From: Patescibacteria group bacterium
GTDB lineage: Bacteria; Patescibacteriota; Minisyncoccia; Phycocordibacterales; UBA9973
DNA length: 33,560 nt
Direction: 5' to 3'
Assembly (NCBI GenBank): GCA_018813625.1
Contig: JAHJBA010000057.1
Location: 1-33,560, forward strand
A program made the translations under genes and the position numbers. Shown piece by piece: positions 1,957 to 31,595 of this stretch (position 1 is its first letter; every line of letters starts with the position of its first letter). Under the pieces are notes generated by a model. The model saw only the letters and a list, made by a program, of their open reading frames with translations, was not told where the DNA came from and did not search any database.

Positions 1957-4104
1957 ATGGAAAGAGATTATCCGTTAGAAAAAGTTAGGAACATTGGAAT
2001 TATCGCACACATTGATGCGGGCAAAACAACGACTACTGAGCGTGTTTTGTTTTATACTGGAGTTTCACACAAAATAGGTGAAGTGCATGAGGGCGAAACT
2101 GTCACCGATTGGATGGAACAAGAAAGAGAAAGAGGAATTACTATTACCTCTGCTGCAGTTACCTGCTTCTGGACTCCGACTTATGCCAATAATGACAAAA
2201 GCAAGAAACATCGTTTTAATATTATTGACACGCCGGGGCATATTGATTTTACCGTAGAAGTAAAAAGATCTCTTCGCGTGCTTGATGGCGCTGTTGTAGT
2301 TTTTGATGGAGTAGCAGGAGTAGAACCTCAATCTGAAACAAATTGGCGTTATGCTGATGAAGCGAAGGTCCCACGTATTTGTTTTATAAATAAATTGGAT
2401 AGAACAGGTGCTTCCTTTGAACGTTCTTATGCAACGATTTTAGATCGTCTTACTAAAAAAGCTGTTCGAATGCAGATACCTATTGGTCTTGAAGAAAAAC
2501 ATGAAGGTGTTGTGGATCTTTTAAAAATGAAGGCCTATTACTTTGAAGGAGAGATGGGCAATCAGGTTATTGAAAAGGAAATTCCAGAAGAAATGAAGGC
2601 AGATGCTGAAAAGTATCGCAATGAATTAATAGAAAAAATTGTGGAACAGGACGATGCAGTCATGAATGATTATTTTGAAGGCAAAATTCCGGAGATTGAT
2701 GTTTTGAAAAAACTTTTGAGACAGGGAGTTATTGCTAATGAAATCTTTCCAGTCTATGCTGGTTCTGCTTTGAAAAATAAAGGTGTTCAATTGGTGCTTG
2801 ACGGAGTAGTCGACTATCTTCCTTCTCCGCTTGATATTCCACCAATGGAAGGAATCGATCCAAATAATGAAGAACATGTAGAAAGAAAAGCCTCAGATTC
2901 TGAACCATTTGCCGCTCTCGCCTTTAAGGTTGCGACTGATCCATTTGTGGGCCAGCTCATTTTCTTTAGAGTTTATTCCGGAACACTTGCTTCTGGGTCT
3001 TATGTTTATAATCCAAGGACTAGAAACAAAGAACGTATTGGTAGAATTTTACGCATGCACGCAAACGATAGAGAAGAGGTGAAGAAAGTTTTTGCTGGGG
3101 AAATTGCCGCTGCGGTTGGGCTTAAAGATACTATTACCTCGGACACAATTTGTGACGAAGAACATCCGATTGAATTGGATAGAATTATTTTTCCAGAACC
3201 AGTTATTTCTCTTCGCATAGAACCAAAAACCAAAGCTGATCAAGAAAAAATGGGCATGGCATTAAATAGGCTTGCTCAAGAAGATCCGACTTTTAAAGTT
3301 AGCACAGACCAAGAAACAGGAGAGACAATTATTTCTGGTATGGGAGAACTTCACTTAGAAATTATTGTTGATCGCATGAAAAGAGAATTTAGCGTTGAGG
3401 CAAATGTGGGCAAGCCACAAGTTGCTTATCGCGAAACGATTACTGGAAATTCAGAAGCAGAAGGTAAGTATATCAAGCAGTCTGGCGGGCGTGGTAATTA
3501 CGGCCATGTGAAGATAAAGGTAAAACCAATGACCATTCTCACAAAAGAAGAGATAGAAGATTTGCCTAAAAACACAAAGCGCTCGGGTGGATTCGAGTTC
3601 ATAAACAACATCAAAGGGGGGGTTATTCCACAAGAATATATTCCTGCTTGTGAGAAGGGATTTAGGGAAGGTCTTGATCGTGGAGTTTTGGCAGGATTCA
3701 AAATGGTAAATGTTTCAGTTGATCTTTGGGATGGAAGTTACCATGAAGTAGACTCAAACGAAATGGCTTTTAAAATTGCAGCTTCTATGGCAATTCAAGA
3801 TGCTTGTAAAAGAGCGAATCCAGTTATTTTAGAACCAATGATGAAGGTTGAAGTTGTCACTCCGGATAAGTTCATGGGAGATGTTACAGGTAATCTTTCA
3901 TCAAAACGTGGAATTATTGAAGGAATGGAAGAGCGCGGAATGAATAAAGTTATTAAAGCCATTGTGCCATTATCTGAAATGTTTGGTTACATGACTGGTC
4001 TTCGTTCCATGACTGAAGGAAGAGCATCATTCACTATGGAATTCATTCGTTACGATATTGTGCCAAACAATGTGGCAGAAACCATCATTGCTGCACGAAA
4101 GTAG
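1957..4104 (+). CDS. fusA: Elongation factor G
   Basis: 715 aa; [23 protein letters not shown] and NKLDR GTPase motifs. Confidence 0.97.
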
Positions 4105-4124
4105 ATCTCAATTTTATTTTATAT

Positions 4125-4151
4125 TTGACAGACCTGCTTTTAAAATATAAG
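4125..4151 (+). promoter_or_regulatory. Possible promoter for ORF 4177..4419
   Basis: TTGACA (4125-4130) and TATAAG (4146-4151), but the spacer is only 15 nt. Confidence 0.3.
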
Positions 4152-4176
4152 CTGAATTTAAACTTGAACAAAAAAT

Positions 4177-4419
4177 ATGGAAAAGATGGAAAATAAAGAA
4201 AATTTCTTTATCGACCAAAGTAAAATAAATGAAGAGGAAAAATATGTAAGCGTGCCCGTTAATTACCCTGAATATTATGATAGAGATGATGTAGTATGGT
4301 TTTGGAATAAGGTTGAGGATGAATTGAAGAAAAAATATCCAGATATTAATTTTTCAGGAATATCAGAGGGAAAATCTGGGGAAGATGGGAAAGAAGAATT
4401 TTTGTTTTACTTTGAATAA
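4177..4419 (+). CDS. Hypothetical acidic protein (80 aa) inserted between fusA and tuf
   Basis: Intact ORF followed by a hairpin terminator; no family recognised. Confidence 0.45.
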   Translation: MEKMENKENFFIDQSKINEEEKYVSVPVNYPEYYDRDDVVWFWNKVEDELKKKYPDINFSGISEGKSGEDGKEEFLFYFE

Positions 4420-4455
4420 AGCCTTTTGTTTTGACAACACGAGGCTTTTTTTATT
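4419..4455 (+). terminator. Putative rho-independent terminator
   Basis: AGCCTTTTGTT-ttgac-AACACGAGGCT hairpin followed by TTTTTTTATTT. Confidence 0.55.
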
Positions 4456-4457
4456 TG

Positions 4458-4525
4458 ATCCCGTAGTAGATTTTGATGATGCCCTTAAGGCGCGCTTTGC
4501 GCTTCATCAAAATTCACTACCGGAT
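4458..4525. repeat. Family C palindromic element, copy C2
   Basis: ATCCCGTAGTAGATTTTGATGA ... GCGCGCTTTGCGC ... TCATCAAAATTCACTACCGGAT. About 22-bp arms, preceded by TTGAT; the last T begins the TTGACA -35 box. Confidence 0.85.
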
Positions 4526-4552
4526 TGACATTGTTTTCTAATTTGCTATTAT
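4525..4552 (+). promoter_or_regulatory. Sigma70-like promoter upstream of tuf
   Basis: TTGACA (4525-4530), 16-nt spacer, TATTAT (4547-4552). Confidence 0.6.
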
Positions 4553-4741: not shown

Positions 4742-5935
4742 ATGGCAGAAGAATTTAAAAGAGATAAGCCACACGTAAACGTTGGCACCATCGGTCACGT
4801 TGACCATGGAAAGACTACATTAACAGCTGCAATTTTGCATGTTCTTAATTTGGCTGGGAATCAGGTAAGGCTTCGCGATGTTAATCAGATTGACAATGCT
4901 CCTGAAGAAAAGGCTCGTGGAATTACTATAAATATTTCACACAACGAGTATGAGACTGCGACTCGTCACTATGCTCACATCGATGCTCCAGGACACGCTG
5001 ACTATATTAAAAACATGATTACCGGTGCCGCTCAAATGGACGGTGCTATTTTAGTGGTTGCCGCAACGGACGGAGCTATGCCTCAGACACGCGAACACGT
5101 TCTCCTTGCAAAACAGGTTGGTGTTCCAAAAATAATCGTATTTCTAAACAAGTGCGATATGGTTGACGATAAGGAAATGATTGATATGGTTGAAGAAGAA
5201 ATTCGTGAACTTCTAACCAAGCAAGGATTTGATGGCGCAAATGCTCCTGTTATAAAGGGATCAGCGCTTAAGGGTCTTGAAGCAAAGGATGTTAACGACG
5301 AATGGGCAAAGAAAATTCTTGAACTTACAAATGCTTTAGATACATACATTCCAGTTCCAGAGAGAGATACATCTAAGCCTTTTTTGATGCCGGTTGAGGA
5401 TATTTTCTCAATTGAAGGCCGTGGCACAGTTGTAACCGGAAAAATCGAAAGAGGTATTGTAAAAGTTGGAGAAGAAATCGAAATTATCGGCATAAAGCCA
5501 ACTCAGAAGTCGGTAGTGACTGGTATTGAAATGTTCAACAAAAACTTACAAGAAGGTATGGCAGGAGACAATGCTGGTATTCTTCTTCGTGGACTAAAGA
5601 AAGAAGATATTACTCGTGGGCAAGTTCTTGCAAAGCCAGGAACAGTTACACCACATGATAATTTTACCTGTGAAGTTTATGTTTTGAAAAAAGAGGAAGG
5701 TGGGCGTCACACCCCATTCTTTAAGGGTTACAAGCCTCAATTCTATATCAGGACTACTGATGTTACGGGCGACGTTACTCTTGCAGATGGTGTAGAAATG
5801 GTTATGCCAGGAGATACGGCAAAACTTACCGTTAAGTTGGTTACTCCGGTTGCCCTTGAGGAATCGCAAAAATTTGCTATCCGCGAGGGAGGTAAGACCG
5901 TCGGGGCAGGAGTCGTTGTGAAGATTCTTGCTTAA
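4742..5935 (+). CDS. tuf: Elongation factor Tu
   Basis: 397 aa; [21 protein letters not shown] and NKCD motifs. Confidence 0.98.
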
Positions 5936-5963
5936 TAAAATTAAAAACGCAATTTATTAGTTC

Positions 5964-6407
5964 ATGACAACATCAGAAACAAAAGTAAAAAAGCCGAAAG
6001 CGGTAAAAGCGACAAAAGCAACGAAGACAGTTAAAGCAGTCGCTAAAACGACCACTAAGGATTCCAAAGAGCCGAAAACAAAAAAGAAAAAAGAGGATGG
6101 GAAAGTGGTACTTCGCATCAGAGTTCGTGCCTACGAGAGCAAGATACTAGATGCGTCAGTCAAACAAATTATAGATACCGCAATGCGTTACGATGCCACT
6201 GTCGTTGGGCCGGTTCCTTTGCCAACGGAGATTAAGAAATATACGGTTAATCGTGCTTCTTTTATCTACAAAAATACACGAGAACAATTTGAAATAAGAG
6301 TACATAAAAGATTAATTGATATTATTAACCCGTCAGCAAAAACAGTTGAAGCGCTTACTAACCTTTCGCTTCCTTCGGGAGTTGATATTGACGTGAAGAT
6401 GCTGTAA
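5964..6407 (+). CDS. rpsJ: 30S ribosomal protein S10 with a ~45-aa Lys-rich N-terminal extension
   Basis: The C-terminal ~100 aa (LRIRVRAYESKILD...PLPT...) are canonical S10. The N-terminus is KKPKAVKATKATK...KTKKKK. Confidence 0.95.
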   Translation: MTTSETKVKKPKAVKATKATKTVKAVAKTTTKDSKEPKTKKKKEDGKVVLRIRVRAYESKILDASVKQIIDTAMRYDATVVGPVPLPTEIKKYTVNRASFIYKNTREQFEIRVHKRLIDIINPSAKTVEALTNLSLPSGVDIDVKML

Positions 6408-6414
6408 GAAGGAA

Positions 6415-6544
6415 ATGAATCCCGTTAGAAGCCGCGATCGCAATTTAAAAATAGATAAAAATATGAAATCAAATATAGAAAAAATTAATAACATAAAACA
6501 TCAGATATGCGAGTTGATCGCGATCTGCTTCTAAACAGGATGAA
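6415..6544 (+). repeat. Family A start-codon hairpin element, copy A1 (between rpsJ and rplC)
   Basis: ATGAA|TCCCGTTAGAAGCCGCGATCGC ...~75 nt A-rich... GATCGCGATCTGCTTCTAAACAGG|ATGAA. Long inverted repeat with a duplicated ATGAA. Confidence 0.85.
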
Positions 6545-7154
6545 ATTTATTCTTGGAACAAAAGAAAATATGATTGAGTATTTTTCTGAAGACGGTACAG
6601 TCATACCTGTAACGGCTGTTTTGGCTGGTCCAGTGACCGTGACCAGGGTGTTTGAAAAATCCAAGGATGGATATAATGCGGTGCAGGTTGGTTTTGGTGT
6701 TCAAAAAAAACACAGAATAAGCAAAGCAAGTATAGGCCAAATGAAAGGTGGTTTTTACAAAAATCTTAAGGAATTCAGACTAAAGCCCACCGATTCAACC
6801 GATTTCAAAGAAGGTGACATAATTGATGTCTCGGCTTTTTCCATTGGCGATAAATTGATAATTTCTGGTACTTCAAAAGGAAAAGGTTTTCAGGGAGTCG
6901 TTAAGCGACATGGCTTTGGTGGTGGTCCTAGAACGCACGGGCAGAAACATTCAGAAAGAGAACCTGGATCGATTGGTGGGGGACTAAGAACCCATGTTCC
7001 TAAAGGGATGAGGATGGCAGGTAGAATGGGACAGGATCGTATCACTCAGAAAAATTTGAAGGTTATTTTCACAGACAAGGAAAATAACATTATGTTAATT
7101 AAGGGTGCAGTACCTGGCAGGCGTGGCAGTTTGGTTGAAATAATAAGTAGATAG
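6540..7154 (+). CDS. rplC: 50S ribosomal protein L3
   Basis: MKFILGTKENM... is a canonical L3 N-terminus; KGKGFQGVVKRHGFGGGPRTHG motif. The track start at 6507 lies inside repeat A1. Confidence 0.93.
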   Translation: MKFILGTKENMIEYFSEDGTVIPVTAVLAGPVTVTRVFEKSKDGYNAVQVGFGVQKKHRISKASIGQMKGGFYKNLKEFRLKPTDSTDFKEGDIIDVSAFSIGDKLIISGTSKGKGFQGVVKRHGFGGGPRTHGQKHSEREPGSIGGGLRTHVPKGMRMAGRMGQDRITQKNLKVIFTDKENNIMLIKGAVPGRRGSLVEIISR

Positions 7155-7156
7155 AT

Positions 7157-7284
7157 ATGGATCCCGTTAGAAGTCGCGATCGCGATTATAATGGAAATAA
7201 AAACATGAAAGAAGATAATAAAACACAAAAAAATATTGAAACTTCCGAAAATACCAGATCGCGACCTACTTCTAACGGGATGGA
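7157..7284 (+). repeat. Family A element, copy A2 (between rplC and rplD)
   Basis: ATGGA|TCCCGTTAGAAGTCGCGATCGCG ... AGATCGCGACCTACTTCTAACGGG|ATGGA. 14-bp perfect outer stem plus a 7-bp CGCGATC/GATCGCG inner stem. Confidence 0.85.
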
Positions 7285-7939
7285 AGCAAAAATTTACAAT
7301 CAAAAAGGAATTGAAAAAGGAAAAATAATTCTTTCAGAGAAGGTTTTTGGTGCTAAGTGGCGAGCTGATTTGGTTCATCAGGTCGTAGAAGGCATGCGTT
7401 CTAATAAAAGAGCTGGTACAGCGGATACAAAAGGTAGAGGGGAGGTTTCTGGAGGAGGAAAGAAGCCTTGGAAACAAAAAGGAACAGGACGTGCTCGTCA
7501 TGGATCCACACGAAGCCCTATTTGGGTTGGAGGGGGTGTTACCCATGGGCCTCTTGCAGAAAAGAACTATAAAAGGAAGATTTCGAAGACAATGCGTGCA
7601 CAAGCTTTATTTTCAGTTTTGTCAAAAAAATTAAAAGACGAGGAGATACTCTTTGTTGATTCTTTATCCTTGCCCGGAATTAAGACAAAAGACGCCGTGG
7701 AAGTAATGAAAAATTTAGCTAAGGCCTCAGGATTTAAAATGATCGCTGAATCAAAAAAACCTAAAGCTCTTGTGGCTCTCTATGAGAGAAACGAGAAAGC
7801 AGAAAAAAGTTTTAGAAATTTATCTCAACTTGAAATGGTTTTTTTAAAAAACTTAAACCCCGTAGATGTTTTGAATCATAGATATCTTTTGATAGAAAAT
7901 CCAGAAGAAAGTGTTAAGTTTTTAGAAAGTCGAGGTTAA
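7280..7939 (+). CDS. rplD: 50S ribosomal protein L4
   Basis: MEAKIYNQKG...; KPWKQKGTGRARHGSTRSPIWVGGGVTHGP motif. The upstream in-frame 41 codons (from 7157) are repeat A2. Confidence 0.88.
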   Translation: MEAKIYNQKGIEKGKIILSEKVFGAKWRADLVHQVVEGMRSNKRAGTADTKGRGEVSGGGKKPWKQKGTGRARHGSTRSPIWVGGGVTHGPLAEKNYKRKISKTMRAQALFSVLSKKLKDEEILFVDSLSLPGIKTKDAVEVMKNLAKASGFKMIAESKKPKALVALYERNEKAEKSFRNLSQLEMVFLKNLNPVDVLNHRYLLIENPEESVKFLESRG

Positions 7940-7943
7940 AAAT

Positions 7944-8016
7944 ATACTTGTCCCGTGCTAAATTTTTGATTACGGGGCATAAAGATGAAGATTATTAATA
8001 AAATTTTAGTACTGGG
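7944..8016 (+). repeat. Family B hairpin element, copy B1 (between rplD and rplW)
   Basis: ATACTTGTCCCGTGCTAAATTTTTGATTACGGGGCATAAAGATGAAGATTATTAATAAAATTTTAGTACTGGG, immediately followed by the ATG of rplW. Confidence 0.85.
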
Positions 8017-8292
8017 ATGATAACGATGAAAATAATTAAAAAACCAAGAGTTACCGAGAAGGCATCTTTCGTGGCAGAACAGAATGTTTACACTTTTGAT
8101 GTCCCAAAGTCTGCAAATAAAACGGAGATTAAAAAAGCAATTTTTGAACTTTATAAAGTAAAGCCAGTTAAAGTAAATATTTTAACAGTTCCATCAAAGA
8201 AGATTTTTGTTAGAGGAAAAGTTGGGACAAAGAGTGGTGGTAAAAAAGTTCTTGTTTATTTAAAAAAAGAAGATAAGATAGAAATTATTTAA
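8017..8292 (+). CDS. rplW: 50S ribosomal protein L23
   Basis: IIKKPRVTEKA... is L23-like; position between L4 and L2. The start could also be the ATG at 8026. Confidence 0.92.
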   Translation: MITMKIIKKPRVTEKASFVAEQNVYTFDVPKSANKTEIKKAIFELYKVKPVKVNILTVPSKKIFVRGKVGTKSGGKKVLVYLKKEDKIEII

Positions 8293-8308
8293 TCCTGTAC
8301 AAGAAAAT

Positions 8309-9157
8309 ATGAAAAAATATAAACCTACAACCAAATCAAGAAGACAAATGACGAATGTTAATTATCGTGGGGTTTTAACCAAAACTGAACCGGAAAAATC
8401 GTTGACCCATGGGTTTAGGCGTTCTGTTGGAAGAAATAGTCAAGGGCGCATTACAACTCGTCACAAAGGGTCAGGACACAAGCGTCTTTTCAGGGATATT
8501 GATTTTATGTATGACAAAAAGGAAATTCCGGCAAAAATAAAATCTATAGAATATGACCCGAACCGCTCAGCCTTTATTGGTCTTGCAGTTTATAAAGATG
8601 GTGAAAAAAGATATGTAATCTTACCTAAGTCTATAAAACCAGGAAGTTCATTTTTAGTTTCGGAAAAAGCGGAGCTTACTACTGGCAATAGATTACCTTT
8701 AAAAAATATTCCAGTTGGAACTTTTGTTTACAATGTAGAAATAAAGCCTCGTGGAGGTTCAAAAATAGGAAGATCAGCAGGAATTTTTGCACAAGTTGTA
8801 GCAAACGCAGAAGGGTACACAAATTTAAAAATGCCTTCAAGCGAGGTGCGTAAAGTTTCAGAAAATTGCTGGGCATGTATTGGTTCTGTTTCGAACGAAG
8901 AACATCATTTAGAGAACTATGGTAAGGCAGGTAGATCTCGCTGGAAGGGAATTCGACCGACTGTGCGAGGAACCGCCATGAATCCGGTTGATCATCCCTA
9001 TGGCGGAGGAGAAGGAAGACAGGGACGTGGAACAAAGAGGCCAAAAACAAAGTGGGGAAAGGTGACTGGCGGAAGAAAAACTAGAAAACCAAAGAAATAT
9101 TCAAATATATTTATTGTATCTCGCAGAAAAACAGGCAAATCCAGAAAAAGTCAATAA
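8309..9157 (+). CDS. rplB: 50S ribosomal protein L2
   Basis: 282 aa; HKGSGHKRLFRDIDF and MNPVDHPYGGGEGR motifs. Confidence 0.97.
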   Translation: MKKYKPTTKSRRQMTNVNYRGVLTKTEPEKSLTHGFRRSVGRNSQGRITTRHKGSGHKRLFRDIDFMYDKKEIPAKIKSIEYDPNRSAFIGLAVYKDGEKRYVILPKSIKPGSSFLVSEKAELTTGNRLPLKNIPVGTFVYNVEIKPRGGSKIGRSAGIFAQVVANAEGYTNLKMPSSEVRKVSENCWACIGSVSNEEHHLENYGKAGRSRWKGIRPTVRGTAMNPVDHPYGGGEGRQGRGTKRPKTKWGKVTGGRKTRKPKKYSNIFIVSRRKTGKSRKSQ

Positions 9158-15307: not shown

Positions 15308-15379
15308 TACTTGTCCCGTACTAAATTTTTGATTACGGGGCATAACAATGAAGATTATTAATAAAATTTTAGTACTGGG
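15308..15379 (+). repeat. Family B hairpin element, copy B2 (between rpsE and rplO, in the usual L30 slot)
   Basis: TACTTGTCCCGTACTAAATTTTTGATTACGGGGCATAACAATGAAGATTATTAATAAAATTTTAGTACTGGG followed by the ATG of rplO. Confidence 0.85.
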
Positions 15380-15817
15380 ATGCAGATACATAATTTAAAA
15401 AGACAACATAAGAACAAAAAAGATCGCATGGTTGGCCGTGGAGGAAAACATGCAAAAACATCGGGTCGTGGAGGTAAGGGGCAGACCGCAAGGGCTGGCA
15501 ATAAGCGACGTCCGGAATTACGTGATATCATAAAAAAATTACCGAAAAACCGTGGATATAAATTTAATTCTTTTCAAATAAAACCGGTTGGTGTTTCGTT
15601 TGATAAAATAATGGGAGCATATTCGAATGGTGGGACAGTTGACCCTATTAGTCTACTTGAATTGAAGATAATAAGTAAAAAGAAAGGGATTGTTCCAAAA
15701 GTTAAAATTTTGAACGGCAAAAAAGACTTTAACTTAAAAATAAAAATTTCAAAGTGTTTTGTTTCTGATTCTGTTAAAAAAAAGATAGCAGAATTGGGCG
15801 GAGAAATTGAACTATAA
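15380..15817 (+). CDS. rplO: 50S ribosomal protein L15
   Basis: GRGGKHAKTSGRGGKGQTARAG motif; position before secY. Confidence 0.93.
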   Translation: MQIHNLKRQHKNKKDRMVGRGGKHAKTSGRGGKGQTARAGNKRRPELRDIIKKLPKNRGYKFNSFQIKPVGVSFDKIMGAYSNGGTVDPISLLELKIISKKKGIVPKVKILNGKKDFNLKIKISKCFVSDSVKKKIAELGGEIEL

Positions 15818-17099: not shown

Positions 17100-17164
17100 A
17101 CCTGGTAGTGAATTTTGATGATATTTAAATGCGTTTTGCGCGTCATCAAAATCTACTACCGGGT
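17100..17164. repeat. Family C palindromic element, copy C3 (arms in flipped orientation)
   Basis: ACCTGGTAGTGAATTTTGATGA ... GCGTTTTGCGC ... TCATCAAAATCTACTACCGGGT. Preceded by TTGAC; the last T begins the TTGATT -35 box. Confidence 0.85.
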
Positions 17165-17192
17165 TGATTATTTTCTAAAAAGTGTGTATTCT
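17164..17192 (+). promoter_or_regulatory. Sigma70-like promoter of adk; geometry predicts a leaderless mRNA
   Basis: TTGATT (17164-17169), 17-nt spacer, TATTCT (17187-17192), then 6 nt to the ATG at 17199. Confidence 0.55.
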
Positions 17193-17198
17193 TTTGAT

Positions 17199-17783
17199 AT
17201 GAATTCAAAAGCTTTTTTGTTTTTTGGACGATCGGGGTGTGGAAAAGGCACCCAAGCTAAACTCTTGGCAGATTTTTTAAGGGATAAAGGGAGAAAGGTG
17301 GTTTATGTGGAGACAGGGGGTCGGTTTCGAGAATTTATGAAAAAAGAAAGTTATTCTAGTCAATTGACACAAAATATTTTACATGAAGGAGGTTTGTTGC
17401 CGGTTTTTTTACCTATCTGGCTTTGGACCAATATTTTGGTTGATAATTTTTCTGGTGAAGAGGATTTAATTTTAGATGGATTATGCAGGAGAAAAGAGGA
17501 ATCAATGGCACTTGATTCTGCTTTTGATTTTTATAAAATCGAGAGACCGAATATCATTTTAATGAATGTCTCTAGAGAATGGTCTTTTGATAGAATGATG
17601 AAAAGAAAGCGCCCAGATGACACGCCGGAGAAGATACAAAATCGCCTAGATTGGTTTACAAAAGATGTTATGCCTGCGATTGATTATTTTCGTGAGAAGC
17701 CGGAATGTAATTTTATTGAAGTAAACGGAGAACAGTCTATTGAAGACGTGCACAAGGATATCATTAAAGCCTTAGGACTGTAA
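17199..17783 (+). CDS. adk: Adenylate kinase-like nucleoside monophosphate kinase
   Basis: MNSKAFLFFGRSGCGKGTQAKLL P-loop; position after secY. The track start at 17115 runs through repeat C3. Confidence 0.85.
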   Translation: MNSKAFLFFGRSGCGKGTQAKLLADFLRDKGRKVVYVETGGRFREFMKKESYSSQLTQNILHEGGLLPVFLPIWLWTNILVDNFSGEEDLILDGLCRRKEESMALDSAFDFYKIERPNIILMNVSREWSFDRMMKRKRPDDTPEKIQNRLDWFTKDVMPAIDYFREKPECNFIEVNGEQSIEDVHKDIIKALGL

Positions 17784-17856
17784 TACTTGTCCCGTATGAA
17801 ATTTTTGATTAAACGAAATAAAGATGAATACAAAAAATAAAAATTTTCATACTGGG
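17783..17856 (+). repeat. Family B hairpin element, copy B3 (divergent; between adk and the pyrH-like gene)
   Basis: ATACTTGTCCCGTATGAAATTTTTGATTAAACGAAATAAAGATGAATACAAAAAATAAAAATTTTCATACTGGG followed by ATG at 17857. Both arms changed in a compensatory way. Confidence 0.8.
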
Positions 17857-18537
17857 ATGGAAGAAATAATAATCATTTCACTCGGAGGTTCACTCATTAT
17901 TCCCGATCAGATAGATGTGGATTTTTTGAAAGACTTCAAAAATCTGATTCTTTTGCATATTTCACAAGGGAAAAAATTTATAATCATAACCGGCGGTGGA
18001 AAGATCTGCAGAAGGTATCAAGAAGTTGCTAAAGAAATTTCGAATCCCTCAAATGAAGACTTAGATTGGATAGGGATTGCTTCTCTTAAACTAAATGCGG
18101 AACTGCTCAGGGTTATTTTTAGTGAAAAGGCACACGAAAAAGTTGTTAGTGATCCACACCAGAAATTGTCTTTTGAAAAGCCGATTATCATTTGTTCAGC
18201 TTATAAGCCTGGAAGGAGTACGGATTGGGATACCGTGATAGTGGCCAAGAATGTTGGTGCCAAAAAAGTAATCAATCTTTCGAACATTGACTATGTTTAT
18301 GATTCTGACCCGAAGATAAACCCAAATGCTAAAAAGATAGAAAAGATATCTTGGGCGGAATATCGTTCAATTATCCCAAAAGAATGGAATCCAGGCTTAA
18401 ATACTCCTTTTGACCCTATTGCTTCAGAAATGGCTGAAAAAGAGGGAATGCAGGTCGTAATTATGAACGGCAAGCCAGTGAGTAATTTAGCTAAGTGTTT
18501 GAATGGCGAGAAGTTTCTTGGAACGATAATAGAATGA
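17857..18537 (+). CDS. pyrH: Amino-acid-kinase-fold protein, archaeal-type UMP kinase-like
   Basis: MEEIIIISLGGS..., ITGGGK, ...SDPKINPNAKKIEKIS... and ...GTIIE resemble archaeal-type uridylate kinases of ~225 aa. The start is chosen at the ATG that follows repeat B3. Confidence 0.7.
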   Translation: MEEIIIISLGGSLIIPDQIDVDFLKDFKNLILLHISQGKKFIIITGGGKICRRYQEVAKEISNPSNEDLDWIGIASLKLNAELLRVIFSEKAHEKVVSDPHQKLSFEKPIIICSAYKPGRSTDWDTVIVAKNVGAKKVINLSNIDYVYDSDPKINPNAKKIEKISWAEYRSIIPKEWNPGLNTPFDPIASEMAEKEGMQVVIMNGKPVSNLAKCLNGEKFLGTIIE

Positions 18538-20201
18538 ACGAAAAAAACGAAAAAAAAATATGTAAGACTTGTGGAAAGGATTTTGAAATAAGAAAAGAGG
18601 ATTTTATATTTTTTAAACAGGTAAAAACTGCGTCACCACTAGATTGTCCTGATTGTCGCATGGCGAGGCGTTTAGTGTTTCGGAATGAAAGAACTCTTTA
18701 TAAGAGAGCGTGTGATCTTTGTAAAAGAGATTTAATAACAGTTTATTCGCCAGAATCAGATTTTAAGGTTTATTGTCATGATTGTTGGTGGAGTGATTCT
18801 TGGGATCCAAAAAGCTTTGCGATGAATTATGATTTAAATAAATCTTTTTTTGAACAATATAAAGAGTTACAAAAAAAAGTTCCTAGACAAAGCATGGCAG
18901 CGGTAAATAATGTTAGAAGTGATTATACTAATGGTTCTGCGGAAAATAAAGACTGTTATTTAATTTTTGCTGCTGATTATAATGAGGACTGCATGTATGG
19001 TAGGTTGCTTCAAAGAGATAAAAATTGTCTTGATTGTGCTTTTTTGCATGAATCAGAACTTTGTTATGAATGTATTGATTCTAGAAGTTGTTTTAAGTGT
19101 ATGTTTTGCGAGCAATGTCAGTCATCAAGTGATTTGCTGTTTTGTTATAATATGAGAGATTCAAATAATTGTATTCTTTGTACAAATGGAAGACATTTAT
19201 CTAATTCAATTTTAAATGTTAAATATTCTAAAGAAGAATTTGAAAAGAAAAAAGCTGAAATTCTTTCTAGTTATGAAAATATTGAAAAAGCAAAAGAAGA
19301 GTTTTCTGAATTAAAGAAAAATACTATTGTAAAATATGCTTGTCAAACAAAATGTAACGAGGTTACTGGTAATTATTTACACAATTGTCATCAGGGAATA
19401 ATGCTTTATGATACTTATGATTCAAAAAACTGTTCTTATATGACAGATACCGAAAGTCCTATTGACAGTCAAGACTGTAATAATTATTATTATAAACCAC
19501 AATTTGGATATAACGTTATGGGAGCATTAGAAGGTAGTCAATTAAAAAATAGTGCTTTCGTTTTTTATTGTAACGAAGTTGAATATTGTGAAAATTGTCA
19601 TCATTTAATAAACGGGATAGGATGTAGCGCTATTCGCAGAGGGGAATATATGATTCTTAACAAACAATACACAAAAGAAGAATATTATAAGTTGAAAGAA
19701 AAGATAGAAGAACAGATGAAAAAGGAAGGAACTTACGGGCAATTTTTTCCAGCTGAACTTGCGCCGTTCGGATATAATGAAACATTAGCGCAAGATTATA
19801 TTCCATTAAAAAAAGAAGAAGCTTTGAAAAGAGGTTTTAGTTGGCAAGAAAAAATAACAGGTACTTATGGAAAAGAAACCATTAAAAAAAGCGAGATACC
19901 AAGTTCTATAGAAAATATAGATGAAAGTATTTTAAAAGAAATATTAGTGTGTGAAGAATGTAATAAAAATTTTAGAATTACTGAAGCAGAGTTAAGTTTT
20001 TACAAAAGAATGCATTTACCATTACCACATAAAGATTTTGAGTGTAGACATAAAGATAGAATGTTAAAGAGAAATCCACGTAAACTCTGGCATAGAAAAT
20101 GCATGAAAGAAGGTTGTAAGAATGAATTTGAGACAAGTTATGCACCTGATCGACCAGAGATTGTATATTGTGAGGACTGTTATAAAAAAGAGGTATACTA
20201 A
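18534..20201 (+). CDS. Cysteine-rich protein (555 aa) with homologous zinc-ribbon-like modules at both termini; function unknown
   Basis: The ATG overlaps the pyrH-like stop (ATGA at 18534-18537). N-terminal CKTCGKDF...CPDCR...CDLC...CHDCWW and C-terminal CEECNKNF...ECRHKDR...CEDCY. The central region is dense in C-x2-C. Confidence 0.8.
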   Translation: MNEKNEKKICKTCGKDFEIRKEDFIFFKQVKTASPLDCPDCRMARRLVFRNERTLYKRACDLCKRDLITVYSPESDFKVYCHDCWWSDSWDPKSFAMNYDLNKSFFEQYKELQKKVPRQSMAAVNNVRSDYTNGSAENKDCYLIFAADYNEDCMYGRLLQRDKNCLDCAFLHESELCYECIDSRSCFKCMFCEQCQSSSDLLFCYNMRDSNNCILCTNGRHLSNSILNVKYSKEEFEKKKAEILSSYENIEKAKEEFSELKKNTIVKYACQTKCNEVTGNYLHNCHQGIMLYDTYDSKNCSYMTDTESPIDSQDCNNYYYKPQFGYNVMGALEGSQLKNSAFVFYCNEVEYCENCHHLINGIGCSAIRRGEYMILNKQYTKEEYYKLKEKIEEQMKKEGTYGQFFPAELAPFGYNETLAQDYIPLKKEEALKRGFSWQEKITGTYGKETIKKSEIPSSIENIDESILKEILVCEECNKNFRITEAELSFYKRMHLPLPHKDFECRHKDRMLKRNPRKLWHRKCMKEGCKNEFETSYAPDRPEIVYCEDCYKKEVY

Positions 20202-20203
20202 AA

Positions 20204-20276
20204 ATACTTGTCCCGTACTGAATTTTTGATTACGGGGCATAAAGATGAAGATTATTAATAAAATTTTAGTACTGGG
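20204..20276 (+). repeat. Family B hairpin element, copy B4 (between the Cys-rich ORF and map)
   Basis: ATACTTGTCCCGTACTGAATTTTTGATTACGGGGCATAAAGATGAAGATTATTAATAAAATTTTAGTACTGGG followed by the ATG of map. Confidence 0.85.
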
Positions 20277-21047
20277 ATGGCAATAATAATTAAAACACCA
20301 GAGGAAATAAAAATAATAAGAGAAGGAGGGAAAAGACTCGCTACTGTTTTAAACAAAGTTAAGGAGATGGTTGCTCCTGGTATTTCGACTAAGGATTTGG
20401 ACGATTATGCAAGAAAGCTTATCAGTGAGATGGGAGACTATCCATCTTTTTTAAATTATTCACCCGATGGTGCCAGCAAGCCCTATCCAGCGGCTCTTTG
20501 CGTATCGGTTAATGATGAAGTTGTACACGGCATTCCTAACAAAGATAGAATTTTGCAAGAAGGAGATATCGTTTCTATAGATCTGGGATTGAAGCATAAA
20601 AATCTTTTTACCGACATGGCCATGACAGTTTCGGTTGGCGAAATAAGTTCGTCTTCAAAGAAGCTTTTAGAAACAACGGAGAGGGCATTGTATGTTGGAA
20701 TAAATGCTGTGCGAGCAGGAAATAGAATAGGAGATATAGGTCATGCTATAGAAAGTTTTGTTCGTCCACATAGGTATGGCATTGTAGAAGTTTTGGCGGG
20801 GCATGGTGTTGGTAAGGCGGTTCACGAGGATCCATATATTACAAATTTTGGCAAAAAGGGAATGGGGGAGAAATTAGTTCCAGGTATGGTTATAGCCATA
20901 GAGCCGATGATAAATAATGGAACTAAAAATGTGACCCTAGATAAGGACGGTTATACTTTTCGTACCGCAGACGGAAAAAAGAGTGCACACTTCGAGCACA
21001 CCATTCTTGTCACGGAAGGGGAGCCAGAAATCTTGACTCGAATATAA
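20277..21047 (+). CDS. map: Type I methionine aminopeptidase
   Basis: 256 aa; HGIPN, DxG...D, HGVG, EPM and EHT metal-ligand pattern. Confidence 0.96.
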   Translation: MAIIIKTPEEIKIIREGGKRLATVLNKVKEMVAPGISTKDLDDYARKLISEMGDYPSFLNYSPDGASKPYPAALCVSVNDEVVHGIPNKDRILQEGDIVSIDLGLKHKNLFTDMAMTVSVGEISSSSKKLLETTERALYVGINAVRAGNRIGDIGHAIESFVRPHRYGIVEVLAGHGVGKAVHEDPYITNFGKKGMGEKLVPGMVIAIEPMINNGTKNVTLDKDGYTFRTADGKKSAHFEHTILVTEGEPEILTRI

Positions 21048-21095: not shown

Positions 21096-21611
21096 TTATA
21101 AACTAGGACCTCCCGACAAGGCAGAACCATATTTAATATCTTTTGTGTTTACATATATTGCTTTGTTTGTTTTTGGATCAGGCCCTATTCTTCCGCCAAA
21201 CTTATCTGCTTCAGCTTCGGCCAAAATAGCTTCCATCTCTTTTTGGCTTGGCTCTGTGAAATAACCTTTTTTAATGGCATTTTGAACAATTGCCCCGTGT
21301 CTTACAATAAAGTCTCTTTCTTTTTTATTTTTAAATAAAAACTTATCGGCAAACTTTTCTCCGGTTTCTCTTATTCTTTTTTCGCTGTCTGACAGGAACA
21401 TGCTAGATATTTTTGAACCCAAATCTTTTCGCCTAAGCTTCTCTTGAAGTTTTTTTAACTCCACTAATTCTGCTTGTTCGGAAGCGCTTAAGCTTTCTAC
21501 ATCTTTTATTGCCTCCTTTGCAATTTCTTTAGTATCGCCTCCATCCAATTTATTTTCTTCTTTCACTTCTTCTCCAGTGGCGACCTTTTTTTCTAATTTT
21601 TCCATCTCCAT
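21096..21611 (-). CDS. Hypothetical Glu/Lys-rich protein (171 aa)
   Basis: Intact ORF, divergent from the 935-aa ATPase; no family recognised. Confidence 0.55.
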   Translation of the reverse strand: MEMEKLEKKVATGEEVKEENKLDGGDTKEIAKEAIKDVESLSASEQAELVELKKLQEKLRRKDLGSKISSMFLSDSEKRIRETGEKFADKFLFKNKKERDFIVRHGAIVQNAIKKGYFTEPSQKEMEAILAEAEADKFGGRIGPDPKTNKAIYVNTKDIKYGSALSGGPSL

Positions 21612-29150: not shown

Positions 29151-30488
29151 CAACCGGACTTGGTTAAATATAGTATTTATGCGATTTTCTTCTTTGGCCT
29201 CGCCAATTATGCGTATTACTGGCTCAGTATTGGAGGGTCTAATATGAACCCATGAAGAGTCTGGCCAGTCGAAGCGTAGGCCGTCTAGGGTGTTTGTAGA
29301 TGCCTCTTTGAACTTTGCCTTAAGTTTCTCATAAAGTAGAGTTAGGTCGCCAGAAAAGGTAATTTTATCTTTTTTCATAAAATATTTAGGCAGGCTCTCT
29401 ATAATTTCTGATATATTTTTTTTCTCTCTTGCCATAAGCTCGAGAACAAGAGCAATACCGGCCAGGCTATCTCTGGCTGTATTTATTTTAGAATAAATGA
29501 CCCCACCATTTCCTTCTCCTCCTATGAGTGCGCCTCTTTCAATCATTTTTTCGACTACATTAGGTTCGCCGACTTTTGTTCTAAAAACTTTTTTATTGTA
29601 ATTATTTGCCAAGTCTTCACACATTTTTGAGGTAGACATATTTAAGATCACATCGCTAGGGTTTTTAGATAGAACACTTTTTACGGCGAGTGCTAGTGTA
29701 TATTCTTCATTTAAAATTTCTCCTTTTTCATTTGCGAGTACCAGACGGTCAGCATCGGGGTCCTGGGCGAATCCTATATCTGAATTATTTTTAGAGACTG
29801 CTTCCGCTAGTTGTTTTAAATTTTTTGCCAGTGGTTCTGGTTCGTGCGCGAATTCTCCATTTTGTTCTTCGTTGATTTGAGAAACTTCACAGCCGAGTTC
29901 CTCCAGTAATTTTTTTGTGATTGTACTGCCTGCGCTATTTATAGGATCGTGGGTAACTTTAAATTTTTTGCTTTTGATCAGGTTTACGTCTATATTTTTT
30001 AATACTTCTTTTATGTGTATCTTTTGATAGCTAGAATTGTCGCAAACTTCTTCCTCATTTTCTTTTTGTGAAAAATTTTTTTCATCTTCAATTAAATTTT
30101 TTCTATTTTCCTCGATTTTTTCTATTTCTTTTTGGGTGGCGAATAGACCATTTTTATTTATAAATTTAAGACCGTTATATTCTCTAGGATTATGCGAAGC
30201 AGTTATCATTATTCCTCCACCAAAAGAGAGTTTTCTTGCTAGAAGAAGCATCGATGGAGTAGGGATGATGCCGGCGTATTCTCCCTCTAAGCCTTCTTTT
30301 TTTAATGCTAATTTTATAGCTTTAAATATTTGTGGTCCGGTTTTGCGTGCATCTCGCCCGATTAAAATTTTATGGCCTCCTTGTTCTTTTATCATTTTTG
30401 CAAAAGCACGCCCAAAATCAAAAGCGATTTTCTCGTCTAAATCTTTGCCCCATATTCCTCTATATCCCGAAACATTCAATTTTGGCAT
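29142..30488 (-). CDS. glmM: Phosphoglucosamine mutase / phosphohexomutase family protein
   Basis: ITASHNPREYNGLKF phosphoserine loop; DPDADR; GGEGNGG. The gene symbol is tentative because PGM/PMM cannot be excluded. Confidence 0.8.
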   Translation of the reverse strand: MPKLNVSGYRGIWGKDLDEKIAFDFGRAFAKMIKEQGGHKILIGRDARKTGPQIFKAIKLALKKEGLEGEYAGIIPTPSMLLLARKLSFGGGIMITASHNPREYNGLKFINKNGLFATQKEIEKIEENRKNLIEDEKNFSQKENEEEVCDNSSYQKIHIKEVLKNIDVNLIKSKKFKVTHDPINSAGSTITKKLLEELGCEVSQINEEQNGEFAHEPEPLAKNLKQLAEAVSKNNSDIGFAQDPDADRLVLANEKGEILNEEYTLALAVKSVLSKNPSDVILNMSTSKMCEDLANNYNKKVFRTKVGEPNVVEKMIERGALIGGEGNGGVIYSKINTARDSLAGIALVLELMAREKKNISEIIESLPKYFMKKDKITFSGDLTLLYEKLKAKFKEASTNTLDGLRFDWPDSSWVHIRPSNTEPVIRIIGEAKEENRINTIFNQVRLIL

Positions 30489-30549: not shown

Positions 30550-30557
30550 CTTAGATG

Positions 30558-30947
30558 TGGAGATGGGGGGAATTGAGCCCCCGTGCAGAAGGTTTTTGTA
30601 AGGAAGTCTACATACTTAGCGCGCTTGTTTGTTTAAATTAAAAAATTATTAAGCGAGCGAAATATTTTTTAATCGATCCTCTATGTTTTGGAAGAAAGTC
30701 GAGGTATTCTTTTTCCTATCCCGATAATATTATGCCTTACCCTATATATCGGAAGTCTATAGGGAAGACACCAACTTACGCTAGAGCGTATGCTGGAGCA
30801 AATCCGAACGCATTACCGAAGTAAGGCGAACGAACTGCCTTAGTAGCTAATTTTGCAATTAGACATTTGAGCGAAGTTTTGCGAGATTGCGCTCATTCTC
30901 GGTATGCATCAATAACAAAAGGCCAACTGTCTATGCCTTGCATCCCC
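30558..30947 (-). ncRNA. ssrA: tmRNA (SsrA)
   Basis: Minus strand 5' GGGGATGCAAGGCATAGACAG pairs with the 3' ...GGGGGCTCAATTCCCCC-CATCTCC-A. This gives an acceptor stem with a G3.U pair and a T-arm. An internal frame ends ...GNAFGFAPAYALA-TAA (stop 30776-30778). Lies 11 nt downstream of smpB. Confidence 0.8.
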
Positions 30948-30958
30948 ATTTTTTGTTT

Positions 30959-31420
30959 TCAACGTCCTTTATATTCGCGCCTTACTTCTCTTTCCGTCTC
31001 GCGCTTTTTGATCGTCTCTCTCTTGTCGTGTTTCTTTTTTCCTTTCACTAAAGCAATTTCTACTTTAATTTTTCTGCCTTTATTATACACTGAAATTGGC
31101 ACTATTGTCAAACTTTTGTTTTTTTCGCTTCCGGCAAGTTTTTCTACTTCTTTTTTGGTCAGCAAAAGTTTTCTATTTCTAAGCGGATCGTAATCTTTCG
31201 GCATATTATTTGGCTGGTATGGTTGTATATTTGTATTGATTAAAAAAGCTTCACCTCCACGAATTATGACATAAGCCCCCTCGAGCGATATTTTTCCGCT
31301 TCTGATGGATTTAACTTCAACTCCTAAAAGCTCAATGCCTGTTTCGTATTTTTCGAGAATTTCGTAATTAAAATGTATTTTTCTGTTTTCAGCGTAGTTT
31401 GCCATATCCAATCTTACCAT
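30959..31420 (-). CDS. smpB: SsrA-binding protein SmpB
   Basis: ENRKIHFNYEILEKYETGIELLGVEVKSIRSGKISL... and the C-terminal basic tail. The start could be the internal ATG at 31405. Confidence 0.93.
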   Translation of the reverse strand: MVRLDMANYAENRKIHFNYEILEKYETGIELLGVEVKSIRSGKISLEGAYVIIRGGEAFLINTNIQPYQPNNMPKDYDPLRNRKLLLTKKEVEKLAGSEKNKSLTIVPISVYNKGRKIKVEIALVKGKKKHDKRETIKKRETEREVRREYKGR

Positions 31421-31467: not shown

Positions 31468-31595
31468 ATGGATCCCGTTAGAAATCATTCAGTTAATTGA
31501 AATTACGGGAAATAATATATTGAATTAGCTTGTATAGTCGTTTTTAGTAATTTAACTACGGAAATCTAAAGATTTCCTATTTCTAACGGGATGGA
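31468..31595 (+). repeat. Family A element, copy A4 (on the ftsH start codon)
   Basis: ATGGA|TCCCGTTAGAAAT ... ATTTCTAACGGG|ATGGA. 14-bp perfect terminal stem; the interior differs from A1-A3 and has the internal hairpin GGAAATC-taaa-GATTTCC. Confidence 0.85.

Follow-up and report, generated by a model that had tools for sequence, protein, structure and literature searches.

Bacterial MITEs (miniature transposable elements with inverted repeats), among them the Correia elements of Neisseria and the cyanobacterial Nezha, have been reviewed by Delihas (PMC3184786). Here we describe family A, a hairpin-forming repeat found in 33,560 nucleotides of a Patescibacteria group bacterium (GenBank assembly GCA_018813625.1, contig JAHJBA010000057.1, positions 1 to 33,560; hereafter the window), one copy of which, copy 2, lies in frame ahead of rplD, the gene for ribosomal protein uL4 (L4). 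We sampled the family in metagenomes with a pattern made from its arms only and free of flanking bases, which gave at least 120 loci; every family-wide count below is among the matches listed, with 97 complete, non-redundant copies behind the start-codon and flank statistics and 91 elements behind the statistics on open reading frames (ORFs) and folds. Like bacterial MITEs, family A is about 120 bp long, has terminal inverted repeats and a short target duplication and carries no transposase gene; like them, too, it occurs in many copies, at sites that are filled in some genomes and empty in others, and forms a long stem-loop at the RNA level (PMC3184786). It is unlike MITEs generally in that about 90% of copies lie on a start codon, in one orientation and with the terminal base of the element completing the ATG, and in its conserved internal coupling ORF, its Patescibacteria host and a partner insertion sequence that was not found. 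We regard family A as a MITE in kind, in which the near-exclusive residence on start codons, the single orientation, the coupling upstream ORF (uORF) and the apparent exaptation into uL4 are unusual.

Mycobacterial interspersed repetitive units (MIRUs) are intercistronic operon repeats with small ORFs and with ends that overlap the adjacent genes (PMC3184786). They differ from family A in their size of 40-100 bp, in being often tandem, in having no long perfect terminal inverted repeats and in sharing no sequence relation with it; nor are they reported to duplicate and rebuild a start codon, whereas family A forms a perfect hairpin of 112-123 nt. The ORFs of MIRUs reportedly run in the direction of the flanking genes and share bases with their stop and start codons. 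If so, the MIRU design resembles the coupling that we propose for family A, in which all but 2 copies are co-oriented with their gene and 65 of 91 are coupled, by which we mean that an ORF of the element stops between -12 and +4 relative to the gene ATG. The Neisseria repeat REP2 lies just upstream of many genes and supplies their ATG initiation codon (PMC3184786), and in family A the gene's ATG is likewise supplied at the repeat end. REP2 differs in bringing a promoter and a ribosome-binding site and in having no terminal inverted repeats, whereas family A shows neither a promoter signal nor a Shine-Dalgarno sequence. The Rickettsia palindromic elements (RPEs), repeats of about 105-146 bp, lie in frame within genes and are kept as peptide, according to the summary of Ogata et al. 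2000 in PMC3184786. Most RPEs sit within an ORF and typically keep its frame, whereas fusion is exceptional in family A (5/91) and a separate uORF is the default. Other fusions of MITEs with ORFs, also treated in PMC3184786, are a further parallel.

Elements of the IS1380/piggyBac type make 4-bp target duplications and have 5'-CC..GG-3' termini (PMC10045372). Family A and another repeat of the window, family C, share with them the 4-bp duplications and the TCCC...GGGA ends; family A is unlike them in the T/A base between CC..GG and the duplication and in its target, which is TGNN and not TTAA. No IS1380-like transposase was found near any family A copy examined, and the link to a mobilising enzyme is only a lead. 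Family A also resembles phage T4 gene 60 and the mitochondrial 'byps' in that matched short sequences flank a structured non-coding insert in a translated region. Translational bypass of the gene 60 type is marked by a stop codon behind the take-off codon, by a gap of some 50 nt and by conservation of the codons for take-off and landing. These defining signals are missing from family A, where no bypass is needed because the insert sits at the very start of the gene. An Rfam scan of the whole window matched only the transfer-messenger RNA (tmRNA), and the searchable literature held nothing relevant on the terminal repeat sequence of family A or on start-codon MITEs in the Candidate Phyla Radiation (CPR) or Patescibacteria. 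One study of CPR ribosomal proteins pointed out that extra N-terminal regions may reflect start-codon prediction (PMC9297842), and the repeat at rplD is a concrete source of one such region.

Anatomy of the repeat at the rplD start

The window is a low-GC ribosomal-protein region of Patescibacteria, and its best L4 matches are labelled Nomurabacteria, Paceibacterota or Minisyncoccia. Positions 7157-7284 consist of ATGGA, a 118-nt hairpin-forming repeat and a second ATGGA, in frame with rplD and stop-free (Table 1). From the first ATG (ATG1, 7157) to the rplD ATG (7280) there are 123 nt, or 41 codons, which translate as MDPVRSRDRDYNGNKNMKEDNKTQKNIETSENTRSRPTSNG-MEAK.... The arms, TCCCGTTAGAAGTCGCGATCGCG and AGATCGCGACCTACTTCTAACGGG, fold with -34.4 kcal/mol (z = -5.3), a stability that 0 of 200 shuffles equalled. 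Among the 91 elements copy 2 alone is in frame and stop-free from ATG1, and it is one of the 5 whose internal ORF is fused to the gene.

Table 1. Features of the window. The target duplication is given in its most likely, 4-bp form.
Feature	Position	Strand	Remark
rplC (L3) stop codon TAG	7152..7154	+	2 nt ahead of ATG1
Copy 2, left ATGGA: A of the original rplD start and left target-duplication copy TGGA (7158-7161)	7157..7161	+	Opens the 41-codon extension
Copy 2, family A element body, 119 nt, TCCCGTTAGAAG...CTTCTAACGGGA	7162..7280	+	Final A (7280) is the A of the rplD ATG
Copy 2, left terminal inverted repeat (5' hairpin arm): outer helix and GTCGCGATC inner helix	7162..7181	+	
Copy 2, right terminal inverted repeat (3' arm), with CTA bulge	7257..7280	+	Encodes SRPTSNG in the rplD frame
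Copy 2, element-internal (central) ATG and 25-codon ORF MKEDNKTQKNIETSENTRSRPTSNG	7205..7279	+	In frame with rplD; sole start kept in 12/12 orthologous loci
rplD (uL4) from the ancestral ATG	7280..7939	+	7281-7284 is the right target-duplication copy TGGA
Family A copy 1, at the rplC start	6415..6544	+	Period 125; ATGAA, element 6420-6540, TGAA
Copy 1, internal uORF MKSNIEKINNIKHQICELIAICF, ending in a stop	6463-6534	+	Stop 5 nt ahead of the rplC ATG at 6540
Family A copy 3, at the rpmI (L35) start	28389..28514	-	Period 121; ATGAA, element 28509-28393, TGAA
Family A copy 4, at the ftsH start; interior divergent	31468..31595	+	Period 123; ATGGA, element 31473-31591, TGGA
Family B repeat (about 74 nt), arms TCCCGT.../...CTGGGA	7946-8019, 15309-15382, 17785-17858, 20206-20279		
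Family C repeat, arms TCCCGTAGTAGATTTTGATGA...	4455-4533, 17116-17167, 29073-29153		Partial copy 1825-1876
tmRNA (Rfam, 113.8 bits)	30555-30947	-	Adjoins smpB, 30959-31420 (-)

A first-pass annotation, made from the letters of the window, had described a 41-codon, in-frame, stop-free insertion ahead of L4 that opens 2 nt after the rplC stop, and these coordinates, frame and spacing are all confirmed (7157 to 7280, 123 nt; TAG at 7152-7154). It had also pointed to the same arms at rplC, rpmI and ftsH, and we likewise find that none of these three copies makes an open in-frame fusion: the periods of the first two are 125 and 121, and the ftsH copy is in frame, yet meets a TGA at codon 11. The rpmI copy is without an internal ATG, and its ATG1 ORF ends at codon 20. 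The rplC and rpmI copies are flanked by the pentamer ATGAA and the rplD and ftsH copies by ATGGA, and in every copy the two sides are identical.

The extension is visible in the protein calls. L4 has 260 aa in the ORF list of the window and 219 aa in the database protein of the same contig (P0001), and relatives have 243-261 aa; the Pfam L4 domain begins at residue 59 of the 260-aa ORF. AlphaFold gives residues 1-39 of the 260-aa form a predicted local distance difference test (pLDDT) score below 40 and no secondary structure, and for these reasons the N-terminal tail is predicted to be disordered.

Family A has the anatomy of a mobile element

The terminal inverted repeats are present at both ends of 4/4 window copies and of about 100 metagenome copies. 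The elements are 112-123 nt long, carry no transposase ORF and are dispersed ahead of unrelated genes. Comparison with 12 closely related species representatives, chosen by their L4 gene, and with the nearest relative (L212, 88% L4 identity) reveals empty sites. In most of the 12, the rplC stop is followed by a few bases and a single ATGGAAGCAAAA, and L212 is empty at both rplC and rplD; TGGA or TGAA stands singly in L212, L003, L007, L065 and others and is duplicated in the window. Two relatives have the same rplD ATGGA filled by visibly different members of family A, which points to independent insertions (in L002 both arms have changed together, and the interior of the L010 copy resembles window copy 1), so the rplD start has been hit repeatedly.

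The flanks define the target. Of 97 copies, 67 have flanks that match over 4 nt; upstream stands ATGNN, with NN equal to the two bases after the downstream ATG, and the commonest duplicated forms are TGAA (50), TGGA (19), TGAG (8) and TGTA (4). The right junction, ACGGG/ATG, is invariant, and the upstream repeat is 4-6 nt long. We think it most likely that the target duplication is 4 bp (TGNN in general, TGRA in the window) and that the element, TCCCG...CGGGA, supplies the downstream A, because an upstream GTG is paired with a downstream ATG in L147 and L114, because the flanks of L093, L130 and L191 match over 4 nt and not over 5, because the length of the upstream repeat varies and because the sister family C of the window, with TCCCGT-type termini and T...A ends, has clean 4-bp duplications (TTGA/TCAA). 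On this reading, the last A of the element and the duplicated TG rebuild an ATG, so that the gene survives the insertion.

The target-site duplication proposed in the first-pass annotation is therefore real, being single in empty sites, and is most likely shorter than the 5 bp it was given, at 4 bp plus the terminal A of the element. The matching pentamers that it listed, ATGGA here and ATGAA in copies 1 and 3, stand as well, except that their A would be no part of the duplication. Taking this anatomy together, we conclude with high confidence that the 123-nt unit is a copy of a MITE-like, non-autonomous, hairpin-forming family of Patescibacteria (Nomurabacteria-type).

Family A copies are occasionally stacked in tandem (L174, L184, L097). 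At L124, around 4090-4260, a related element (arms TCCCGTTAGAGG) lies inside a family A right arm with a CCTG duplication; nested or stacked elements also occur in L174, L184, L185 and L121, and several loci hold two tandem elements that share one ATGAA.

Residence on start codons in one orientation

Directly after 87 of the 97 complete copies comes an ATG whose ORF is 60 codons or longer or runs off the contig, as against 30% for random ATGs. For 10/10 tested downstream proteins (L22, RuvX, RuvC, S13, SSB, L9, EF-G, L31, HU and RecR), positions 1-3 of the Pfam profile align to residues 1-9, in keeping with an ATG that is the gene's true N-terminus. The orientation opposite to the gene was seen in only 2 copies (L191 and L093), so about 98% point the same way. 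ATGRA occurs 217 times in the window, 19 times at a gene start, 13 times between genes and 185 times within them; an ATGRA preference with purging of intragenic insertions predicts about 59% of copies at starts, and about 90% are observed there. The association of family A with gene start codons thus merits high confidence, and the bias exceeds simple survivorship, with the integration mechanism or selection as its source.

Several genes carry family A at their start codon in more than one metagenomic genome: ssb (L141/L168/L178/L180), ruvC (L125/L144), murG (L109/L119), mreB (L157/L174) and rpsR (L141/L176). This recurrence suggests either old shared insertions, as at rplD, or insertion hot spots.

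A conserved internal reading frame ends at the gene start

The family A consensus keeps an ATG within its A-rich centre. In 50 of 77 cases, the gene ATG lies 61, 64, 67, ..., 82 nt from this central ATG; 42 of these 50 have an ORF open to the TAA of the right terminal repeat (at -7), 4 nt before the gene ATG. A further 15 cases are in the frame that ends in an ATGA overlap, 13 of them open, and only 12/77 have the central ATG in frame with the gene, 9 of these being closed by a stop. Altogether coupling is seen in 65 of 91 elements and fusion in 5, against 14 and 19 in a reverse-complement control, and after clustering at 70% identity 40 of 56 clusters are coupled. In a short (about 80-nt) subfamily, most copies reach the same ORF end point from the duplicated ATG1.

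The fold of the 91 elements averages -39.8 kcal/mol per copy, with the A and U of the gene AUG paired. A recognisable Shine-Dalgarno motif was found neither at the roughly 43 genes of the window nor in the element; native leaders (for example aaataaaaatATG) are rich in A and T, as are the surroundings of the central ATG, and many cistrons lie a few bases apart. A scan of 5900-8400 for sigma-70 promoters and terminators returned 5 promoter-like matches, where shuffles lead one to expect 6.4, and an outward promoter in the element is accordingly unsupported. We have moderate confidence in a translational-coupling mechanism, by which ribosomes leaving the internal ORF may be handed on to the gene.

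History of the rplD copy

In the 1.3 Mb of sequence that we fetched around loci, the interior of copy 2 matches rplD loci only. Homologous rplD copies occur in many related metagenomic genomes, with the extension MKKDNxxQKNxxxSxxxxSRSTSNGM...; 9 orthologues have an intact hairpin, and 12 loci were examined for the central ATG. Among the 9, the arms have a mean pairwise identity of 0.90/0.91 and the interior one of 0.71-0.78, whereas the third positions of the adjacent L3 and L4 codons have an identity of 0.37-0.60. Since the flanking third positions are far less identical, the rplD element is under nucleotide-level constraint; recent transfer was rejected as an explanation, the synonymous sites beside the element being near saturation. 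The comparison thus indicates that copy 2 is an old insertion common to related genomes. The L4 protein tree is too poorly resolved to bear on a single origin, and filled and empty loci interleave in it.

What is conserved does not look like a protein. Identity per codon position is 0.80/0.79/0.76 in the internal ORF and 0.80/0.88/0.50 in the L4 core, and the equal conservation of the three positions means that the pattern of the internal ORF is not of the protein type. The stems of the orthologues are 92-99% paired and the hairpin keeps -33 to -38 kcal/mol in most of them; in L202 and L203 the left arm has changed from G to A and the right arm, to match, from C to T. In 6 of the 9, ATG1 has mutated, been deleted or acquired a stop behind it, whereas none of the 9 has lost the central ATG or its frame into L4, and 12/12 loci keep the central ATG. 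For this reason the conserved entry point is the ATG at 7205 and not that at 7157.

At three other loci, representing two homologues (L208/L209 and L210), nothing is left of the left arm, drift has altered the right arm and the ancestral ATG is now TTA; L208 and L210 fold no better than shuffles (z near 0). With the ancestral ATG lost, uL4 can start there only at the central ATG of the element, and on this reading the insert has turned into a fixed N-terminal tail of 24-25 residues, which looks like exaptation. An intermediate is seen in L200, where the hairpin is weakened to -16.8 kcal/mol and a 3-nt deletion has preserved the frame.

These results modify several further statements of the first-pass annotation. 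It took the peptide for a by-product of a nucleic-acid element, and its origin does lie in a mobile element: the 41 codons come from one, as their terminal repeats, duplication, empty sites, arms elsewhere, absence of codon periodicity and arm conservation argue. The peptide is no mere accident, however, since the central-ATG frame through the 3' arm has been maintained, and being translated in its 3' half appears to belong to the design of the family. An extended L4 of the kind it envisaged is plausible, with the central ATG and not ATG1 as the conserved entry. The comparison of L4 N-termini that it proposed gave empty sites in L212 and most representatives, together with an extension that has no inverted repeat in L208/L209 and L210; because the latter looks like exaptation, it is not evidence against a mobile origin. 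Its proposed check of substitution patterns likewise turned up no codon-type pattern, and stem covariation proved unconvincing.

Alternative explanations

Taken as a whole, the data are probably best explained by a MITE-like hairpin that resides on start codons and carries a relay uORF, with copy 2 as a rare in-frame fusion. Family A inserts at the TGNN of a start codon and duplicates this target, its terminal A and the TG most likely together rebuilding the ATG. Ribosomes would translate the short central ORF through the 3' arm, melting the hairpin, and would then terminate at the repeat-borne TAA (or at the ATGA overlap) and reinitiate at the gene, in an organism that has no Shine-Dalgarno sequences. 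In copy 2, where ATG1 and the central ATG are both in frame, uL4 would gain a disordered tail of 41 or 25 residues; the chances that this extended protein is actually made in the window genome seem to us about even. In some lineages, hairpin and ancestral ATG have decayed and left the element-derived ORF as the obligatory start of uL4. A bolder version, possible though improbable in our estimation, sees a start-codon-homing mobile translation cassette: integration itself would recognise oriented start codons, the host would keep hairpin and relay uORF for conditional control, and the outcome would be a mobile post-transcriptional regulon across the housekeeping genes of Patescibacteria, with occasional N-terminal tails. 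We would hold just as tentatively that such homing takes in not only family A but also sister families with TCCCGT termini.

Several findings weigh against the relay explanation. A transposase or autonomous copy with family A termini was found neither in the window nor in the 1.3 Mb of fetched loci nor in viral contigs, and for that reason transposition is deduced from anatomy only. The searches took in a 5-kb range for partner arms, every TCCCG/CGGGA pair of the 1.3 Mb spanning no more than 3.5 kb, the ORFs of L158, Pfam profiles on unassigned window ORFs and viral contigs; nothing fitted, and they returned only neighbouring small elements or chance matches in GC-rich contigs. Covariation in the rplD stem is weak, as 32 of 500 shuffles reach the observed score. 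The predicted accessibility of the central ATG is moderate (mean unpaired probability 0.41), and 21 of 91 copies, window copies 3 and 4 among them, have no coupling ORF. The idea that the frame opened by ATG1 is kept open had to be rejected: it is stop-free in 23/91 elements, similar to the 7-22 of other frames. Lastly, the in-frame rplD orthologues were found through extended protein calls and are biased towards open frames for that reason, so that their open frame is partly an effect of ascertainment; the evidence from L208/L209 and L210 is free of this bias.

A purely selfish MITE with no role in translation would owe its position to an [A]TGRA preference and the purging of intragenic insertions, and its ORFs would be incidental. 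Terminal repeats, target duplication, empty sites and many copies are all as such an element would have them, and so are the unremarkable ATG1 frame, the copies that have no coupling ORF and the modest exposure of the central ATG; survivorship alone, with 19 start and 13 intergenic ATGRA sites, already brings about 59% of copies to starts. We nevertheless find this account unlikely, given that residence at starts and orientation (about 90% and about 98%) exceed the survivorship expectation, that the central-ATG distance has a 3-nt periodicity, that in-frame fusions are depleted relative to the reverse-complement control and that the synonymous sites beside the rplD copy change far faster than the copy itself. 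Quite unlikely is a hairpin that is itself the selected function, as a cis-acting RNA structure that occludes the AUG and serves as a translational repressor or thermosensor, as a site where RNase III processes the RNA or its stability is set, or as one that a protein binds, with the ORFs secondary. It would make sense of very stable folds that pair the A and U of the gene AUG, of arms that are the most conserved part of the rplD orthologues (0.90) and of the paired stem cells with matched arm changes in L202 and L203. It has no Rfam family match to its credit, however, the covariation is not significant and partly explicable by hairpin-templated correction, the kept reading frame and the orientation bias go unexplained, and L208/L209 and L210 lost the hairpin while the insert stayed.

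The 41 codons could also be an ordinary ancestral N-terminal coding extension of uL4, next to which the inverted repeat is a coincidence. Many L4 homologues (243-261 aa) carry a homologous extension, and L208/L209 and L210 have it with neither an inverted repeat nor an internal start. This is very improbable, and we regard it as effectively refuted, because the site is empty in L212 and most species representatives (a single ATGGA) and because the same arms recur at three other window genes and about 100 unrelated genes elsewhere; the equal conservation of the three codon positions, and of the non-coding left arm with the coding right arm, also speaks against it. Programmed translational bypass, with take-off at the first ATGGA, landing at the second and the hairpin skipped, would suit identical pentamers around a stable hairpin, and is scarcely conceivable all the same: ATG GAT CCC reads on past the take-off codon without meeting a stop, the gap measures 123 nt, 6/9 orthologues have an upstream ATG that is lost or closed by a stop, the upstream repeat varies from 4 to 6 nt, and target duplication explains the repeats. 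We have rejected it.

If the relay explanation is true, a parasitic DNA element can occupy the start codons of essential genes, where these are most sensitive, because it rebuilds the ATG and supplies a relay ORF itself. There would also be a concrete, datable route from a mobile hairpin to a fixed N-terminal extension of a core ribosomal protein. The L4 calls of 243-261 aa, and start calls inside other repeat families, would be products of such elements, and 'CPR-specific N-terminal regions' therefore need checking against repeats. Finally, family A would offer a testable handle on translation start in bacteria that have no Shine-Dalgarno sequences.

Related repeats and neighbouring features

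Two other repeat families of the window are listed in Table 1. On its right side family B ends directly at a gene's ATG, namely at rplW, rplO, an amino-acid-kinase gene and map; the left flank is ACTTG in 4/4 copies, no target duplication can be seen, and an internal ATG opens a short ORF, MKIINKILVLG, that ends at or just past the gene ATG. The rplW site is empty in L212. The same left flank, in the form ACTTG/TCCCGT, is also found on some family-A-like copies (L088, L136, L148).

Family C is intergenic and does not lie on start codons; L097 has a family C element in tandem after family A. The mechanical ORF of adenylate kinase (17115-17199) starts at a TTG inside a family C element, which is probably a start miscall induced by the repeat; the real start is probably the ATG at 17200, because the Pfam domain begins at residue 37. 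S10 has a Lys/Ala/Thr-rich N-terminal extension of 50 residues (5964-6113) before its Pfam domain, and its length ranges from 96 to 162 aa among close relatives. An element-derived fusion was considered for it and rejected, the extension being a low-complexity tail with no inverted repeat.

At 21723-24530 the window encodes a 935-aa ORF with weak TrwB/TraG-D/HerA-type coupling-ATPase domains, near which the ORFs 18495-20201 and 21096-21611 have no Pfam match. A different, small pair of palindromic repeats, GTCATTCCCGCGCAGGCGGGAAT...ATTCCCGCCTGCGCGGGAATGAC, lies between two divergent genes of a CPR contig (L158, 7594-7662), and in one relative an ORF with a GIY-YIG domain follows rplB in the S10 operon (L207, 3551-3735).

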